From the IMG/VR virus record IMGVR_UViG_2896589216_000005: a DNA stretch of 52,416 nt; one strand, 5' to 3'. The notes beneath the pieces were generated by a model that was given only the letters and a program-made list of their open reading frames with translations, had not been told where the DNA came from and ran no database searches. Numbering within the stretch: position 1 is the first letter of the stretch; each line of letters begins with the position of its first letter. Below, piece by piece: positions 5,316 through 51,083 of the stretch. This DNA is from a virus (lineage: Duplodnaviria > Heunggongvirae > Uroviricota > Caudoviricetes). The position numbers and the translations under genes are program-made.

Positions 5316-5368
5316 GGGCGGCAGAGCAGTCACGGAGTAAAACTGATACCGCCAAACGTCACCAGAAA
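5316..5368 (-). ncRNA. dicF: DicF small regulatory RNA (53 nt) followed by U-tract
   Basis: Reverse complement of 5316-5368 reads UUUCUGGUGACGUUUGGCGGUAUCAGUUUUACUCCGUGACUGCUCUGCCGCCC followed by UUUUU, matching the DicF sequence as recalled. Confidence 0.88.
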
Positions 5369-13094: not shown

Positions 13095-13293
13095 CGACTT
13101 TTACCAGAGAGCAGTTAATAGCTCACGCAGAGGAGACTATTGAAGCACAGAGACTGTGCATACCGGGCACAATCGACCATGACATCATCCGCACATATAA
13201 GATAGACTGGCCCCCTGAATCTCCAGACAACCAGTATCACTTAAATAAGTGATAGTCTTAATACTAGTTTTTAGACTAGTCATTGGAGTACAG

Positions 13294-13659
13294 ATGATTG
13301 ATGTCTTAGGGCCGGAGAAACGCAGACGGCGTACCACACAGGAAAAGATCGCAATTGTTCAGCAGAGCTTTGAACCGGGGATGACGGTCTCCCTCGTTGC
13401 CCGGCAACATGGTGTAGCAGCCAGCCAGTTATTTCTCTGGCGTAAGCAATACCAGGAAGGAAGTCTTACTGCTGTGGCCGCCGGAGAACAGGTTGTTCCT
13501 GCCTCTGAACTTGCTGCCGCCATGAAGCAGATTAAAGAACTCCAGCGCCTGCTCGGCAAGAAAACGATGGAAAATGAACTCCTCAAAGAAGCCGTTGAAT
13601 ATGGACGGGCAAAAAAGTGGATAGCGCACGCGCCCTTATTGCCCGGGGATGGGGAGTAA
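13294..13659 (+). CDS. insC: IS2 InsC (orfA)
   Basis: 121-aa ORF from [14 protein letters not shown]6G slippery site before stop. Confidence 0.9.
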
Positions 13660-14522
13660 GCTTAGTCAGCCGTTGTCTCCGGGTGTCGCGTGCGCAGTTG
13701 CACGTCATTCTCAGACGAACCGATGACTGGATGGATGGCCGCCGCAGTCGTCACACTGATGATACGGATGTGCTTCTCCGTATACACCATGTTATCGGAG
13801 AGCTGCCCACGTATGGTTATCGTCGGGTATGGGCGCTGCTTCGCAGACAGGCAGAACTTGATGGTATGCCTGCGATCAATGCCAAACGTGTTTACCGGAT
13901 CATGCGCCAGAATGCGCTGTTGCTTGAGCGAAAACCTGCTGTACCACCATCGAAACGGGCACATACAGGCAGAGTGGCCGTGAAAGAAAGCAATCAGCGA
14001 TGGTGCTCTGACGGGTTCGAGTTCTGCTGTGATAACGGAGAGAGACTGCGTGTCACGTTCGCGCTGGACTGCTGTGATCGTGAGGCACTGCACTGGGCGG
14101 TGACTACCGGCGGCTTCAACAGTGAAACAGTACAGGACGTCATGCTGGGAGCGGTGGAACGCCGCTTCGGCAACGATCTTCCGTCGTCTCCAGTGGAGTG
14201 GCTGACGGATAATGGTTCATGCTACCGGGCTAATGAAACACGCCAGTTCGCCCGGATGTTGGGACTTGAACCGAAGAACACGGCGGTGCGGAGTCCGGAG
14301 AGTAACGGAATAGCAGAGAGCTTCGTGAAAACGATAAAGCGTGACTACATCAGTATCATGCCCAAACCAGACGGGTTAACGGCAGCAAAGAACCTTGCAG
14401 AGGCGTTCGAGCATTATAACGAATGGCATCCGCATAGTGCGCTGGGTTATCGCTCGCCACGGGAATATCTGCGGCAGCGGGCTTGTAATGGGTTAAGTGA
14501 TAACAGATGTCTGGAAATATAG
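13617..14522 (+). CDS. insD: IS2 InsD (orfB transposase, DDE)
   Basis: 301-aa ORF in the -1 frame relative to insC. Confidence 0.9.
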
Positions 14523-14766
14523 GGGCAAATCCAAAGATGGATATTGCTGTTCTGGAAATCGCACTGGTATCGCTGGCAGCAGAGCCAGCCGGTAAATTGC
14601 ATGAATACAAACCAGTGGGATATCAGCGTCTGGTCGATGAGTTAACCATGCTGGTAAAGCAGTTAACCTGGCAACTGAGGAAAGCGAAGCCAGACTGCAA
14701 ATTACCGGATAAGGCGATGAGTTATCTGGAGCGGAACGGACTGATAAGCGTGGAGGATATTTTACG

Positions 14767-14850: not shown

Positions 14851-15061
14851 AAACGGTTTGCGGGAAAAGGAGAGTTAAGTAGAATTGCAGCGGGTGCTTG
14901 AGGCTATCTGTCTCAGGCATGAACACCAAAAGGCAGATAGAGAAAAGCCCCAGTTAACATTACGCGTCCGGCAAGACGCTTAACATTAATCTGAGGCCAT
15001 ATCTATGCTCTACACACGTAGGTTAGCCTCTTACGTGCCGAAAGGCAAGGAGAAGCAGGCT

Positions 15062-15217
15062 ATGAAGCAGCAAAAGGCGATGCTAATCGCCCTGATCGTC
15101 ATCTGTTTAACCGTCATTGTGACGGCACTGGTAACGAGGAAAGACCTCTGCGAGGTACGAATCCGAACCGGCCAGACGGAGGTCGCTGTCTTCACAGCTT
15201 ACGAACCTGAGGAGTAA
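15062..15217 (+). CDS. hok: Hok/Gef-family membrane toxin (51 aa)
   Basis: MKQQKAMLIALIVICLTVIVTALVTRKDLCEVRIRTGQTEVAVFTAYEPEE matches the Hok family signature (closest recalled member HokD/RelF). Confidence 0.8.
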   Translation: MKQQKAMLIALIVICLTVIVTALVTRKDLCEVRIRTGQTEVAVFTAYEPEE

Positions 15218-17090: not shown

Positions 17091-17465
17091 ATGCTCATAG
17101 ATTTGGTTTTACCTTACCCGCCGACGGTGAACACTTACTGGCGACGCCGTGGCAGCACATATTTTATCTCGGAGGAGGGAAAGCGTTATCGCCGGGCTGT
17201 GGCGCTTATTGTTCGCCAGCAGCGGCTGAAATTAATCCTGTCCGGAAGGCTGGCGATAAAGGTGATTGCAGAGCCACCGGATAAGCGTCGTCGCGACCTG
17301 GACAATATCCTGAAAGCACCGCTGGATGCGCTGACGCATGCGGGAGTGTTAATGGACGATGAGCAGTTTGATGAAATCAATATCGTTCGTGGTCAGCCAG
17401 TATCTGGTGGACGTATGGGGGTGAAGATTTACCCCATAATGCATGAAGAGCAGGTCAAAAAATGA
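17091..17465 (+). CDS. rusA: RusA-family Holliday junction resolvase
   Basis: 124-aa ORF; YPPTVNTYWRRRG and RRRDLDN motifs of RusA. Confidence 0.85.
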   Translation: MLIDLVLPYPPTVNTYWRRRGSTYFISEEGKRYRRAVALIVRQQRLKLILSGRLAIKVIAEPPDKRRRDLDNILKAPLDALTHAGVLMDDEQFDEINIVRGQPVSGGRMGVKIYPIMHEEQVKK

Positions 17466-18283
17466 AACTGGAAGATTTACCGAAATACTACTCCCCAAAA
17501 TCCCCTGGCCTGACCGATGTATCGGCCTCAACGTCAAAAGATGCGCTGAGTATCACTGATGTGATGGCCGCGCAGGGCATGACACAGAATCGGGCTGAGA
17601 TGGGGTTTTCTGCGTTCCTGGGGAAAATGGGCATCAGTATGAATGACAGGGCGCGGGCAACAGAATTACTGGCAGATTATGCACTCAGTCGGTGCGATCG
17701 TGTGGCGGCGTTGAGAAAACTTCCGGCAGAAATAAAACCGGTAGTGATGCGCATTATGGCTTCGTACGCTTTTGAGGATTATGCCCGCAGCGCAGCGAGT
17801 AAAAAGCAGTGCCCTTGTTGCTATGGGGAAAAATTTATTGAAAGCGTAGTTTTTACAAACAAGGTCCAGTATCCGGATGGTAAGCCGCCGGTATGGGCAA
17901 AGTGTACGAAAGGTGTGTATCCGTCTTACTGGGAAGAATGGAAAAAAGTCAGGGAGGTGGTAAAAGTTGCCTGTCCGGAGTGTGGCGGAAAGGGTGAGGT
18001 TTCCACCGCCTGTAAGGATTGCCGTGGGCGTGGTGTCGCCATTCATCGTGAAGAGTCGGTAAAACGTGGTATGCCTGTTATCAGAGACTGCCAGCGTTGT
18101 GGTGGTCGTGGCTGTGAAAGACTACCATCAACGGAGGCATTTAATGCCATATGCAAAGTGACGAGTGCTATCACGCTTGATACGTGGAAAAAATCAGTGA
18201 AACGCTTTTACGATACGTTGGTGGTTCGGTTTGACATTGAAGAGGCATGGGCGGAGCGGCAGTTAAAGAGGGTAACGCGATAG
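17462..18283 (+). CDS. Q: Late-gene antiterminator Q (zinc-binding type)
   Basis: 273-aa ORF with multiple CxxC pairs, located just upstream of a promoter/terminator pair and the late genes. Confidence 0.78.
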   Translation: MKLEDLPKYYSPKSPGLTDVSASTSKDALSITDVMAAQGMTQNRAEMGFSAFLGKMGISMNDRARATELLADYALSRCDRVAALRKLPAEIKPVVMRIMASYAFEDYARSAASKKQCPCCYGEKFIESVVFTNKVQYPDGKPPVWAKCTKGVYPSYWEEWKKVREVVKVACPECGGKGEVSTACKDCRGRGVAIHREESVKRGMPVIRDCQRCGGRGCERLPSTEAFNAICKVTSAITLDTWKKSVKRFYDTLVVRFDIEEAWAERQLKRVTR

Positions 18284-19956: not shown

Positions 19957-20032
19957 GGCCCTTTAGCTCAGTGGTGAGAGCGAGCGACTCATAATCGCCA
20001 GGTCGCTGGTTCAAATCCAGCAAGGGCCACCA
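19957..20032 (+). tRNA. ileZ: tRNA-Ile2 (anticodon CAU, lysidine type; ileZ-like)
   Basis: 76-nt cloverleaf by hand folding; anticodon loop CUCAUAA; near-identical to recalled ileX; encodes 3-prime CCA. Confidence 0.85.
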
Positions 20033-20039
20033 TCACATA

Positions 20040-20116
20040 CCGCCATTAGCTCATCGGGATAGAGCGCCAGCCTTCGAAGCTGGTTGCGCGGGGTTCGAGT
20101 TCTCGATGGCGGTCCA
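20040..20116 (+). tRNA. argO: tRNA-Arg (anticodon UCG)
   Basis: 77-nt cloverleaf by hand folding; anticodon loop CUUCGAA; T-loop TTCGAGT; encodes CCA. Confidence 0.78.
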
Positions 20117-20373: not shown

Positions 20374-20570
20374 ATTGTCTGGCTGCCGGAGAATTTGTTA
20401 AAAATTACATCGCATGGTGAATCCCCCTCAGCGGCGGGGCATCTGGCAAAGTGTATGATCCAGAGAACATGCAAATTCAGTAGACAGGCTGAATTTACCG
20501 GGAGGCACCTGGCACCATGCGACAGACAGAAATTAGGCTATACTTCAGCCCCTCTCCGGAGGGGCTTTTC
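20374..20570 (+). repeat. Structured direct-repeat unit A (about 200 bp) ending in an 8-bp GC hairpin plus T-run
   Basis: Shares conserved blocks with unit B; terminal hairpin AGCCCCTC-TCCG-GAGGGGCT followed by TTTTCT. Confidence 0.5.
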
Positions 20571-20842
20571 TGTGCAGGATGTGTCACAGTTTCCTGAATT
20601 CTGAGTACTGTCCTGTTACTCAGGGTGCTATATTTTCTGACGTGATGAAAGTCTGCCGGAAGGCGGAACGTATCGGAAATGACCCAGTAGAGAAAACGTT
20701 GACTCAGATACCGATGCTGAGTTACCGGGAAACCGGCATCACATGACCGCTATCCTTCCAGGCTCGCTCCGGCGGGCCTTTTTACTGCAGAAAACAGTTT
20801 TCCCGTAAAATGCTACGTTGCTCATAATTCAGGCTGGCGATT

Positions 20843-21035
20843 ATTGTCTGGCCAGCGGGAAGTTTGTTAAAAAATTTCGCATGGTGAATCCCCCTGTGCG
20901 GAGGGGCAATCAGCGAGTAGGTATATGGGATAATCGCGGATTCAGGTGCTGGTACTGAATTCACCGGGAGGCACCCGGCACCATGCAATGGCACATAGCG
21001 CCACTCTCCAGCCCCTCTCCGGAGGGGCTGTTTAT
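20843..21035 (+). repeat. Structured direct-repeat unit B
   Basis: Same block order as unit A, 469 bp downstream; identical terminal hairpin. Confidence 0.5.
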
Positions 21036-21064
21036 ATTGATTTTGTCAGATGTGAGTAAACTCC

Positions 21065-21400
21065 TTATGGACTTTGTTGTTTTAGTCCATAAGGACATAT
21101 TTGCAGAGTGCAACGGTTATTAAAGCATTCATTCAATACGTTATCTGTATTTGTAGGGCATTCCTGGCTGTTTTTGATTAAATTCCAGAATGTTTTATTG
21201 AATGGCACTACGTTGTAAATGGTTACAGGTAGCACTTTGTTATTGAGCATGATGCCTGTGTGAGTCAGTGTAAATATACTTTCAGGAGGTAAGAAAGCAT
21301 CCGATTGATACCAGATTATTAATTTTATTTTACTCCATATGACTGAAAAAGATATTCCGCATGATGGCTGGATAACTGTATCAATCACAATCCACTTCAT
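21065..21400 (-). CDS. Hypothetical protein in AT-rich island, 111 aa
   Basis: ORF with AGGAAA SD 4 nt before the ATG; low GC relative to flanks; the 3-prime end overlaps a hairpin, so the C-terminus is uncertain. Confidence 0.4.
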
Positions 21401-23516: not shown

Positions 23517-23662
23517 AAAGTGAGCCAGTCAAATGGAAGGTATCGTTAAACTCACCGGTAGTGTCAGTGGGTAGACTGGCCCCCTGAATCTCCAGACAAC
23601 CAGTATCACTTAAATAAGTGATAGTCTTAATACTAGTTTTTAGACTAGTCATTGGAGTACAG

Positions 23663-24094
23663 ATGATTGATGTCTTAGGGCCGGAGAAACGCAGACGGCG
23701 TACCACACAGGAAAAGATCGCAATTGTTCAGCAGAGCTTTGAACCGGGGATGACGGTCTCCCTCGTTGCCCGGCAACATGGTGTAGCAGCCAGGCAGTTA
23801 TTTCTCTGGCGTAAGCAATACCAGGAAGGAAGTCTTACTGCTGTGGCCGCCGGAGAACAGGTTGTTCCTGCCTCTGAACTTGCTGCCGCCATGAAGCAGA
23901 TTAAAGAACTCCAGCGCCTGCTCGGCAAGAAAACGATGGAAAATGAACTCCTCAAAGAAGCCGTTGAATATGGACGGGCAAAAAAGTGGATAGCGCACGC
24001 GCCCTTATTGCCGGGGATGGGGAGTAAGCTTAGTCAGCCGTTGTCTCCGGGTGTCGCGTGCGCAGTTGCACGTCATTCTCAGACGAACCGATGA
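23663..24094 (+). CDS. insC: IS2 orfA (InsC) of copy 2, C-terminally altered
   Basis: ORF extended to 143 aa by the 1-bp deletion; S-to-R substitution relative to copy 1. Confidence 0.7.
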
Positions 24095-24890
24095 CTGGAT
24101 GGATGGCCGCCGCAGTCGTCACACTGATGATACGGATGTGCTTCTCCGTATACACCATGTTATCGGAGAGCTGCCCACGTATGGTTATCGTCGGGTATGG
24201 GCGCTGCTTCGCAGACAGGCAGAACTTGATGGTATGCCTGCGATCAATGCCAAACGTGTTTACCGGATCATGCGCCAGAATGCGCTGTTGCTTGAGCGAA
24301 AACCTGCTGTACCACCATCGAAACGGGCACATACAGGCAGAGTGGCCGTGAAAGAAAGCAATCAGCGATGGTGCTCTGACGGGTTCGAGTTCTGCTGTGA
24401 TAACGGAGAGAGACTGCGTGTCACGTTCGCGCTGGACTGCTGTGAGCGTGAGGCACTGCACTGGGCGGTGACTACCGGCGGCTTCAACAGTGAAACAGTA
24501 CAGGACGTCATGCTGGGAGCGGTGGAACGCCGCTTCGGCAACGATCTTCCGTCGTCTCCAGTGGAGTGGCTGACGGATAATGGTTCATGCTACCGGGCTA
24601 ATGAAACACGCCAGTTCGCCCGGATGTTGGGACTTGAACCGAAGAACACGGCGGTGCGGAGTCCGGAGAGTAACGGAATAGCAGAGAGCTTCGTGAAAAC
24701 GATAAAGCGTGACTACATCAGTATCATGCCCAAACCAGACGGGTTAACGGCAGCAAAGAACCTTGCAGAGGCGTTCGAGCATTATAACGAATGGCATCCG
24801 CATAGTGCGCTGGGTTATCGCTCGCCACGGGAATATCTGCGGCAGCGGGCTTGTAATGGGTTAAGTGATAACAGATGTCTGGAAATATAG
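24051..24890 (+). CDS. insD: IS2 orfB (InsD) of copy 2, N-terminally truncated (279 aa)
   Basis: Lacks the first 22 codons present in copy 1; D-to-E substitution. Confidence 0.7.
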
Positions 24891-25001
24891 GGGCAAATCC
24901 AGTGGGTCGTCTGAGATGCCTGCATGAGTTATCAGAGCCATCAGTACTTAACTGGTGGCTTTTTTTATTGTTGTCAGCTTCCGGATAACGGGAGACGGGG
25001 T

Positions 25002-25217
25002 ATGTACCAGATGGAAAAAATCACAACAGGTGTGTCATACACCACGTCAGCGGTGGGAACGGGCTACTGGTTCCTGCAGTTGCTGGACAGGGTTTCCCCG
25101 TCTCAGTGGGCGGCAATAGGCGTGCTGGGGAGTCTGCTGTTTGGGCTGCTGACATATCTGACTAACCTGTATTTCAAAATCAGAGAGGACCGTCGTAAGG
25201 CGGCACGGGGAGAGTAA
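25002..25217 (+). CDS. Class II holin/pinholin (EssD/EssQ-like), 71 aa, dual-start motif
   Basis: [10 protein letters not shown]... with two transmembrane segments; dual start Met1/Met4. Confidence 0.85.
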
Positions 25218-25221
25218 TTCA

Positions 25222-25566
25222 ATGACTCAAAACTATGAACTGATTGTGAAAGGGATCCGCAATTTTGAGAATAAAGTTACGGTAACTTTAGCGTTACGGG
25301 ACAAAAAACGCTTTGACGGTGAAATTTTTGACCTGGACATCGCGCTGGACCGTGTTGAAGGTGCCGCGCTGGAGTTTTATGAGGCAGCAGCCAGAAGGAG
25401 CATCAGACAGGTCTTCCTGGATGTTGCTGCCGGGTTATGTGAAGGGGATGAGCAGTCGCCGGAAAAGCGCCCCGTAATTTTAGAGGCGCAGGATGTGTTG
25501 ATAACCTACAGAGGAAAACTACCGGGAATAATTACGGGTTCTCTGAAGAGTCCGCCGAAATGGTAA
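25222..25566 (+). CDS. YdfR-like protein (DUF1327) inside the lysis cassette
   Basis: 114-aa ORF between holin and endolysin, as ydfR is in Qin. Confidence 0.55.
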   Translation: MTQNYELIVKGIRNFENKVTVTLALRDKKRFDGEIFDLDIALDRVEGAALEFYEAAARRSIRQVFLDVAAGLCEGDEQSPEKRPVILEAQDVLITYRGKLPGIITGSLKSPPKW

Positions 25567-25804
25567 TTTTACCAGCATATTTTTCATCCAGTAATACAGC
25601 AAGCCGCCTGAAAGAGTCTTGTTGTTCCTGAGACCATTTGGGATTGCATGATTCAAACTGGATTGATGCCAGCGTTGATTGCATCTGTTCCCTTGGAATT
25701 GAGAATGCCAGATATGAGAAGGCGACGGTAAGGGTATTCACGTCTTCCCGAAGCCTAGAAATGCTGTCGAGCAACTCCTGTAGAGAAATGGTGTTATTGT
25801 CCAT
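25532..25804 (-). CDS. Hypothetical 90-aa protein encoded antisense within the lysis cassette
   Basis: Minus-strand ORF with GAGGA SD 6 nt upstream of the ATG; overlaps the 3-prime end of the ydfR-like gene by 35 nt. Confidence 0.4.
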   Translation of the reverse strand: MDNNTISLQELLDSISRLREDVNTLTVAFSYLAFSIPREQMQSTLASIQFESCNPKWSQEQQDSFRRLAVLLDEKYAGKITISADSSENP

Positions 25805-25909
25805 AAATAATCCTCATGATTGTATTGACCTGTTAGCAGCCTGAGGCAACAGGCTGGAACTGATAAACATATCCAGGGCTCAGAAACCGATAAATCCTGA
25901 TAAATATCC

Positions 25910-26443
25910 ATGAACGCAAAAATCAGATACGGCCTGTCGGCTGCCGTTCTGGCGCTGATTGCCGCTGGTGCGCCTGCGCCTGACATTCTCGACCAGTTTC
26001 TGGATGAAAAGGAAGGTAACCACACCACGGCATACCGTGATGGCGCGGGTATCTGGACCATCTGCCGCGGTGCCATCCTGGTGGATGGCAAACCTGTCGT
26101 TCCGGGCATGAAGTTGTCGAAGGAAAAATGCGACCGGGTTAACGCCATTGAGCGTGATAAGGCGCTGGCATGGGTGGAGAAAAACATCAGAGTGCCATTG
26201 AGCGAACCCCAGAAAGCGGGGATCGCGTCATTCTGTCCGTACAACATTGGTCCCGGTAAGTGTTTCCCGTCGACGTTTTATAAACGAATTAATGCAGGTG
26301 ATCGCAGGGGAGCGTGTGAGGCGATTCGCTGGTGGATTAAGGACGGTGGCAGAGACTGCCGTATTCGTTCAAACAACTGCTACGGTCAGGTATCCCGTCG
26401 TGACCAGGAGAGCGCGCTGGCGTGCTGGGGTATCGACAGATAA
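25910..26443 (+). CDS. Endolysin (lysozyme, GH24-like) with N-terminal SAR signal-anchor
   Basis: 177-aa ORF; hydrophobic Gly/Ala-rich N-terminus then T4-lysozyme-like core. Confidence 0.85.
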   Translation: MNAKIRYGLSAAVLALIAAGAPAPDILDQFLDEKEGNHTTAYRDGAGIWTICRGAILVDGKPVVPGMKLSKEKCDRVNAIERDKALAWVEKNIRVPLSEPQKAGIASFCPYNIGPGKCFPSTFYKRINAGDRRGACEAIRWWIKDGGRDCRIRSNNCYGQVSRRDQESALACWGIDR

Positions 26444-26741: not shown

Positions 26742-27209
26742 ATGAACCGCGTACTGTGCGTGGTCATCATTGCCCTGCTGGTGGCCTGTGGTGCGCTTAG
26801 TCTGGGGCTGAATCATTACCGTGATAACGCCATAACCTACAAAGAGCAGCGCGATAAAAAAGTCAGTGAGCTGGAGCAGGCAAATGCAACCATTACTGAT
26901 ATGCAGCAGCGCCAGCGTGATGTTGCTGCACTTGATGCCAGATACTCGAGGGAATTAGCCGATGCGAGAGCTGAAAATGAAACTCTGCGCGCTGACGTTG
27001 CCGCTGGTCGTAAGCGCCTGCGGATCAACGCCACCTGCCCCGGTACCGTGCGTGAAGCCCCCACCACCTCCGGCGTGGATAATGCAACCGGCCCCCGACT
27101 GGCAGACACCGCTGAACGGGATTATTTCACTCTCAGAGAGCGGTTGATGCTGATGCAGAAGCAGCTGGAAGTGGCGCAGGAATATATCCGCACTCAGTGC
27201 CTGAAATAA
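26742..27209 (+). CDS. Rz: Rz i-spanin
   Basis: 155-aa ORF with N-terminal TM segment and coiled-coil; follows the endolysin. Confidence 0.85.
   Translation: MNRVLCVVIIALLVACGALSLGLNHYRDNAITYKEQRDKKVSELEQANATITDMQQRQRDVAALDARYSRELADARAENETLRADVAAGRKRLRINATCPGTVREAPTTSGVDNATGPRLADTAERDYFTLRERLMLMQKQLEVAQEYIRTQCLK
26962..27147 (+). CDS. Rz1: Rz1 o-spanin lipoprotein embedded in the +1 frame of Rz
   Basis: Signal peptide with lipobox VVSAC and proline-rich mature part; entirely inside Rz. Confidence 0.7.
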   Translation: MRELKMKLCALTLPLVVSACGSTPPAPVPCVKPPPPPAWIMQPAPDWQTPLNGIISLSESG

Positions 27210-50499: not shown

Positions 50500-51083
50500 T
50501 GGCATTCAGAATGAGTGAACAAGCACGGACCATAAAAATTTATAATCTGCTGGCCGGAACTAATGAATTTATTGGTGAAGGTGACGCATATATTCCGCCT
50601 CATACAGGTCTGCCAGCAAACAGTACCGATATTGCACCACCAGATATTCCTGCTGGCTTTGTGGCTGTTTTCAACAGTGATGAGGCATCGTGGCATCTCG
50701 TTGAAGACCATCGGGGTAAAACGGTTTATGACGTAGCGTCAGGGGACGAGTTATTTATTTCTGAACTCGGTCCGTTACCGGAAAATGTTACCTGGTTATC
50801 GCCGGAAGGGGAGTTTCAGAAGTGGAACGGCACAGCCTGGGTGAAGGATACGGAAGCAGAAAAAATGTTCCGGATCCGGGAGGCGGAAGAAACAAAAAAC
50901 AACCTGATGCAGGTAGCCAGTGAGCATATTGCGCCGCTTCAGGATGCTGCAGATCTGGAAATTGCAACGGAGGAAGAAACCTCATTGCTGGAAGCCTGGA
51001 AAAAGTATCGGGTGTTGCTGAACCGTGTTGATACATCAACTGCACCTGATATTGAGTGGCCTACGAACCCTGTCAGGGAGTAA
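50499..51083 (+). CDS. tfa: Tail fiber assembly protein Tfa
   Basis: 194-aa ORF near-identical in pattern to lambda Tfa; start overlaps the stf stop (TAATG). Confidence 0.92.

Follow-up and report, generated by a model that had tools for sequence, protein, structure and literature searches.

A reverse-oriented gene between ydfR and the endolysin gene of a lambdoid prophage is probably a moron rather than part of the lysis machinery

The lysis cassette studied here contains an open reading frame of 90 codons (orf90) that runs against all of the surrounding genes, lying between a ydfR-like gene and the endolysin gene. This raises the question of whether orf90 is a gene at all and, if it is, whether it represents cargo expressed in the lysogen or a modulator of lysis, the two roles that the original prediction left side by side. 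The window, i.e., the whole stretch of 52,416 nucleotides that was analysed, is a lambdoid prophage. The features of its lysis cassette are as follows:

25002..25217, plus strand: class II (S21-type) holin, in the 71-aa form called by RefSeq
25222..25566, plus strand: ydfR (DUF1327, E = 8e-43), 114 aa
25532..25804, minus strand: orf90 coding sequence, ATG start, TAA stop, 90 aa
25811..25815 (read 25815-25811), minus strand: Shine-Dalgarno sequence GAGGA of orf90, 6 nt 5′ of the ATG
25805..25909: intergenic region from the orf90 start to the lysozyme start, 105 nt, constrained
25910..26443, plus strand: phage lysozyme, an rrrQ-like endolysin, separated from ydfR by the insert
26742..27209, plus strand: Rz
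26962..27147, plus strand: Rz1

Gene and domain calls place the holin, ydfR, endolysin and Rz/Rz1 genes on the plus strand and recover the antisense frame with its ATG, TAA and Shine-Dalgarno sequence, as had been read from the bare DNA. The convergent overlap of 35 nt between the 3′ ends of orf90 and ydfR (ydfR stop at 25566) was likewise predicted correctly. An upstream ATG of the holin gene at 24924 opens a 97-aa frame (24924..25217). The minus-strand sequence 5′ of orf90 reads GGTCAATACAATCATGAGGATTATTT-ATG, also written as ...CAATACAATCATGAGGATTATTT-ATG.

The window is rich in antisense frames of similar length, one of them, of 169 aa, inside the lysozyme gene; ORF length alone is therefore weak evidence. 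Divergent copies of orf90 from E. ruysiae, Citrobacter, IMG/VR contigs and assemblies were aligned by codon with no internal gaps. In this alignment the orf90 frame yields pairwise dN/dS values of 0.08–0.44 and a pooled pN/pS of 0.32, and no stop interrupts it in any of the seven divergent copies. Conservation in relatives, on which the original prediction had made its case depend, is therefore found both as an open frame and as purifying selection. orf90 is a genuine protein-coding gene under purifying selection in its own frame, and it is this selection that raises it above chance.

The contrary view holds that orf90 is spurious and that the true role of 25567-25909 is non-coding or belongs to the plus strand, for example to a 68-aa ORF with a TTG start (25638..25844). 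Besides the frequency of antisense ORFs of such size in the window, this view can claim the low pN/pS (0.38) of that plus-strand frame, which, however, follows from third codon positions common to both frames. The same frame is broken by stops in six of the seven divergent copies, whereas orf90 is broken in none, and in Citrobacter no ORF of at least 50 aa crosses the orf90 homologue on the opposite strand. The plus-strand ORF, which reaches 89 aa with an ATG start in some relatives, was rejected because of these stops; the remaining four frames show ratios of at least 1.0 and many stops. A Shine-Dalgarno sequence precedes each distant homologue whose DNA was read (it is weaker in L091), the protein family is recognisable by profile at 25–40% identity, and the AF2 fold is confident. 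We regard a spurious ORF as highly improbable, and the stop pattern of the two frames already largely refutes it.

The gene is already annotated in RefSeq and PHROGs, without a function. Its product is identical to RefSeq WP_000369850.1, a hypothetical protein whose gene occupies this position in many E. coli genomes, and matches PHROG 2411 (function unknown) over its full length (E = 1.1e-58, residues 1-90 on profile positions 1-90 of 90); some UniRef entries name the protein Ybl58. A literature search found no publication on orf90. Among the database copies, a minority carry a frameshift (94-aa products) or a truncation, as would be expected for dispensable prophage cargo. The frameshifted alleles (proteins P0037, P0049, P0051, P0059 and P0060 of 94 aa; P0041 and P0053 of 56 aa) continue in the +1 frame, likewise an open one (a 45-aa ORF at 25519-25656 in the window), and end in ...LPFRRTLQRTRNYSR. 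Not all of them are sequencing errors, since several clusters have multiple members.

How the gene came to lie at this site is suggested by comparison with the Qin prophage of E. coli K-12. The Qin genes essQ-ydfR-rrrQ-rzpQ include the same S21-type holin, YdfR N-terminal domain and lysozyme in the same order, but orf90 is lacking, and the Qin ydfR encodes 103 aa with another C-terminus and has a stop codon overlapping the rrrQ start. The limits of the additional DNA can be placed as follows:

25436..25900 (approximate): inserted module, ~465 bp, absent from the K-12 Qin cassette
25430-25440: left junction, inside ydfR codon ~70-73
~25900: right junction, ten bases 5′ of the lysozyme ATG

Homology between the window and Qin extends to ydfR codon ~70 (~25430), is then lost, and returns at ~25900. 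At one locus (L088) unrelated sequence stands in place of the N-terminal part of ydfR while everything from ~25439 onward is kept, so that the mobile unit should begin, on its left side, at ~25436. The insert has a GC content of 45%, compared with 54–56% for the holin, lysozyme and Rz genes, and a GC3 of 0.48 against 0.59–0.65. The module thus has two marks of a moron: it lies where a relative has the flanking genes adjacent (Qin ydfR abuts rrrQ), and its composition is distinct from that of its neighbours.

We propose that the insert entered an S21-type lysis cassette at the point where ydfR meets the endolysin gene; there it would have replaced the last ~33 codons of ydfR and separated the endolysin start from it; the site may be a recombination hot spot of the late region. 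Residues 1-~70 of the YdfR protein are homologous to K-12 YdfR, and the insert encodes the tail (~71-114), whose coding sequence overlaps the 3′ end of orf90. To judge from this alignment, the last ~44 residues of the present 114-aa YdfR come from the 3′ flank of the insert. Such an origin offers an explanation for the differing C-terminal tails of YdfR proteins. The tail has a dN/dS of 0.60 and the N-terminal domain one of 0.51, ratios that do not decide whether the tail is functional. More generally, YdfR proteins agree over residues 1-~70 and differ beyond them, and PHROGs contains variants of 105–296 aa with the same N-terminus.

In addition to the gene itself, the insert would supply signals for its expression:

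25866..25894, minus strand: candidate sigma-70 promoter, TTTATC (25894-25889), 17-nt spacer, TATGTT (25871-25866)
25837..25856: inverted repeat CAGCCTG-N6-CAGGCTG, perfect over 7 bp, between orf90 and the lysozyme gene
25463..25489, minus strand: terminator-like hairpin, GCGCCUC-9 nt-GGGGCGC followed by UUUU

The hexamers TTTATC and TATGTT are invariant in five diverged Escherichia-type copies while the spacer varies (alignment read by eye). They match the consensus weakly (3/6 and 4/6), and the consensus scan, which called nothing 5′ of orf90, did not call the pair. Transcription from them would start near 25859. A TACAAT at 25824-25819 is a poor candidate for the main promoter, as its start site would fall inside the conserved Shine-Dalgarno sequence. 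The only minus-strand promoter-like site that the scan did report (25504-25477) lies 3′ of orf90 and is within chance expectation. No LexA box (CTGT-N8-ACAG) occurs in 25805-25909, even with one mismatch, and membership of orf90 in the SOS regulon finds no basis there.

Across the 105 intergenic nucleotides divergence is 2–4 times slower than at synonymous sites (K 0.13–0.25 versus dS 0.21–0.95 in orf90), a constraint that might just as well reflect the start of endolysin translation from the opposite strand. The inverted repeat in this region is nested within a second repeat, CCTGTT...AACAGG, and a hairpin recurs at its position in diverged copies, Citrobacter included. The repeat would lie at the 5′ end of the predicted orf90 leader; it might form a stem-loop there in the orf90 mRNA, fold within the late transcript or bind a protein. 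At the other end, the terminator-like hairpin has a GC-rich 7-bp stem (25489-25467) that begins 43 nt past the orf90 stop, within the codons of the ydfR tail. With a 9-nt loop and only four U residues it falls below the criteria of the terminator scan and was not called. Its stem is retained in L087 through a change from U.G to U-A and is shortened in L088. An Rfam search of 25400-25900 returned no family.

Because the insert carries a promoter-like pair, a Shine-Dalgarno sequence, an ORF and a terminator-like hairpin, orf90 could be transcribed alone and against the late operon. We consider it probable that orf90 is an accessory gene on a self-contained, reverse-oriented moron of ~465 bp, that it is made independently of Q-dependent late transcription, and that its product acts by protein binding and not in lysis. 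Transcription from its own promoter without Q would most plausibly take place in the lysogen. The protein would bind a host or phage protein, as IraM-like small prophage cargo does, and would take no part in lysis by holin, endolysin and spanin.

The properties of the predicted protein agree with such a role. It is acidic (10.2 kDa, pI 4.5), and the AF2 model (pLDDT 84) has three helices at residues 8-35, 38-51 and 59-76. There is no membrane segment or signal sequence in orf90, the maximum hydropathy over 19 residues being 0.75. On this model the product is expected to be a small, soluble, three-helix protein that is not membrane-associated. The homology and structure searches that the original prediction proposed gave the RefSeq and PHROG 2411 matches described above and no match in Pfam, in the PDB or by fold. 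Searches of orf90 and its relatives against Pfam, NCBIfam and PADLOC produced nothing meaningful; a match to the NCBIfam model Mip (E = 0.037 over 15 residues) was taken as chance. The defence models of PADLOC-DB gave nothing at E ≤ 1 for orf90, YdfR or two chromosomal relatives. A PDB profile search yielded YibL alone (E = 0.26, not significant), and fold searches gave no match.

In contrast to this reading, the convergent arrangement may be taken to hint that the orf90 promoter serves as a modulator of lysis or of the late operon, producing antisense RNA to the ydfR 3′ end, with the protein being secondary. Such transcription would damp leaky read-through into the endolysin and spanin genes in lysogens or tune the timing of lysis. 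The position of orf90 between holin and endolysin, converging on ydfR with the 35-nt overlap, fits this idea, as do the constrained upstream region and the orientation opposite to the late genes in every prophage and phage context examined. However, the protein sequence is under purifying selection and a Shine-Dalgarno sequence is kept in homologues down to ~25% identity, stand-alone relatives have no lysis neighbours, and the Citrobacter homologue lies upstream of the whole lysis cassette. Moreover, the terminator-like hairpin would end an antisense transcript in the ydfR tail, before the holin gene, and the region matches no Rfam family. We consider this explanation unlikely; a purely transcriptional antisense role may exist as an additional effect but leaves the selection on the protein sequence unexplained.

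Of the two roles originally suggested, then, the cargo reading is supported by the discrete low-GC insert and the stand-alone relatives, with expression in lysogens as its probable corollary. The comparative data do not support a lysis modulator, given a family without linkage to lysis genes and a protein that is not associated with the membrane. Neither a membrane segment or lipoprotein signal nor a consistent linkage to lysis genes across the family, as would be expected of a lysis protein, was found.

The unique part of orf90 is present in 1207 of 5426 complete E. coli genomes (~22%), usually as one copy per genome. Carriers include O25b:H4-ST131 strains (99.6% identity), CFT073 (C_RS06730) and S88. 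The region from ydfR to the lysozyme gene is matched partially in 4347 genomes and fully in only ~1100, which means that most cassettes of the window type are without orf90. The gene matters in view of this spread, with roughly a fifth of complete E. coli genomes carrying it, the ST131 and CFT073 lineages among them, and an Stx2k phage as well.

Among sequenced phages only three carry orf90: vB_EcoS-783R2, Chlobot and phiSTEC1575-Stx2k. In the latter two the lysis cassettes are otherwise intact. Phage phiSTEC1575-Stx2k (L105 1285-3303) has an S21-type holin, ydfR and orf90, followed by two more holin-family genes and an M15 metallopeptidase endolysin. It thus possesses two holin sets in tandem, the second unrelated, and no lysozyme after orf90. 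In most of the other contexts the gene on this side of orf90 is the lysozyme gene.

A prophage of Citrobacter meridianamericanus (L003 2465-6847) encodes an 83-aa orf90 homologue located 5′ of a lambda-S-type holin, a CHAP endolysin and a DUF2514 spanin. Beside the homologue, the cargo region of this prophage includes a gene for a pertussis-toxin-S1-like ADP-ribosyltransferase and a reverse-oriented HicA/HicB pair. The convergent neighbour of the homologue encodes a 238-aa protein whose C-terminal motif ITGSL is shared with YdfR; an assignment as YdfR-like was rejected, as the protein has no Pfam or BLAST similarity to DUF1327. The shared motif stems from ~20 nt of common DNA just past the orf stop.

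The family was extended in two steps, first with a profile search of 1.8 billion representative proteins and then with a word-indexed search. Relatives of ~90 aa with 25–40% identity were found in Serratia, Chania, Gibbsiella, Pantoea, Mixta, Winslowiella/Erwinia, Izhakiella, Sodalis and related genera. By these searches orf90 belongs to an unnamed Enterobacterales family of ~90-aa acidic proteins predicted to have three helices and no membrane segment. In Serratia marcescens and Winslowiella the relative (X) occupies a conserved chromosomal slot, pyrC-dinI-X-bssS-solA (L093 5001-5282; L094-L096 5001-5276). A LexA box precedes dinI in Serratia and Winslowiella, and a terminator separates dinI from X, which has its own Shine-Dalgarno sequence and, in Winslowiella, also its own terminator. 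By this arrangement, X is a predicted transcription unit separate from dinI. Kinship to the neighbouring BssS was considered, and hhalign of the orf90 family against BssS showed no relationship. E. coli K-12 presumably has no gene between dinI and bssS. An E. coli paralogue of 92 aa (64% identity) lies in an island outside any prophage, where its neighbours encode an AIDA-type autotransporter and a regulator of the AraC family. The relatives in Sodalis and in a metagenomic lineage likewise stand alone, in unrelated neighbourhoods. Members in Escherichia and Citrobacter appear to be confined to mobile or accessory DNA. The link between orf90 and the chromosomal ~90-aa genes of Serratia, Erwiniaceae and Sodalis is recorded in no annotation examined.

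One may speculate further that orf90 and the dinI-X-bssS relatives constitute a new class of stress-connector or anti-adaptor-like proteins binding a host regulator or an RNA-decay component. Prophages of E. coli would then have acquired a copy, and its expression in the lysogen would serve to reprogram the host or block a superinfecting phage, and the fusion of the 3′ flank to YdfR could itself be functional. We give this extension little credence.

Another possibility concerns YdfR directly. In K-12, residues 1-72 of YdfR bind the N-terminal domain (catalytic half) of RNase E, and the protein co-purifies with RNA (PMC13232886); the part shared among YdfR proteins (1-~70) coincides with this RNase E-binding fragment. 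orf90 could be the functional partner of YdfR in a two-gene unit with the insert-encoded tail, for example by neutralising or regulating YdfR. Apart from the RNase E and RNA binding of K-12 YdfR, this idea draws on the 114-aa ydfR allele overlapping orf90 in every Escherichia prophage or phage copy examined except L088, and on the low pN/pS (0.22) of the ydfR overlap codons. The exception matters, however: in L088 orf90 is kept without the N-terminal domain of ydfR. Relatives of orf90 also lie beside the autotransporter and in the chromosomal dinI-X-bssS loci, the Citrobacter homologue adjoins a 238-aa protein without detectable DUF1327 similarity, and most ydfR genes are without orf90 (~4347 genomes match the region and ~1200 carry the gene). 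Common descent of a single insert explains the Escherichia linkage. The occurrence of orf90 without YdfR in several contexts thus opposes obligate pairing of the kind seen in a toxin–antitoxin-like unit, and we think a YdfR partner quite improbable.

Under the favoured reading as a moron, orf90 can be compared with known cargo genes. Like lambda bor/lom and the HK97-type morons, it is a small accessory insert of the late region near lysis genes, with distinct composition and patchy presence. The bor gene, like orf90, is oriented against late transcription. It lies after Rz, encodes an outer-membrane lipoprotein with a signal peptide, and its expression in lysogens has been demonstrated. orf90, whose expression in lysogens we only infer, differs in lacking a signal or membrane segment and any sequence similarity to bor, in its position between ydfR and the endolysin gene, and in supplying the ydfR tail.

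A further model is found 4 kb upstream in the same prophage, where the cargo region between Q and the lysis genes holds an IraM gene:

17462-18283: Q antiterminator
19957-20116: tRNA-Met(CAT) and tRNA-Arg(TCG), downstream of a DNA methylase gene
21065-21400, minus strand: IraM gene, 111 aa, 100% identical to RefSeq "anti-adapter protein IraM" WP_000871291.1
21645-23516: sialate-esterase-like gene
27651-28199: terminase Nu1

IraM is likewise a small cytoplasmic protein encoded in reverse orientation, and with RssB as its target it exemplifies a small cargo protein that binds a host regulator. No sequence similarity between the two was detected (no common Pfam or NCBIfam match), and a Pfam search of the IraM ORF of the window matched no model.

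On this reading orf90 is one more uncharacterised prophage moron and establishes no new principle. What the analysis adds is evidence of selection, the limits of the insert, the probable origin of the YdfR tail and a link to a chromosomal Enterobacterales family. The gene can be put to experiment now, as a real, selected gene that is probably cargo and not lysis machinery and that has chromosomal relatives at dinI-X-bssS in Serratia, Erwinia and Pantoea.

Several further elements were observed in the window. Matches at Rfam gathering scores comprise DicF (5316-5367, minus strand), a sok-like antitoxin RNA (14892-15067, plus strand), two copies of STnc100 (20382-20575 and 20851-21039, plus strand) and IS009 (50842-51040, plus strand). 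Two copies of IS2 lie in direct orientation, 10.37 kb apart, at 13203-14533 and 23572-24901. The second is 1330 bp long, one base shorter, with an altered pattern of transposase ORFs, and is flanked by a 5-bp duplication, GTGGG. It is inserted between the esterase-like gene and the lysis cassette, ~100 bp 5′ of the holin gene, a position from which it may influence late transcription entering the lysis genes.
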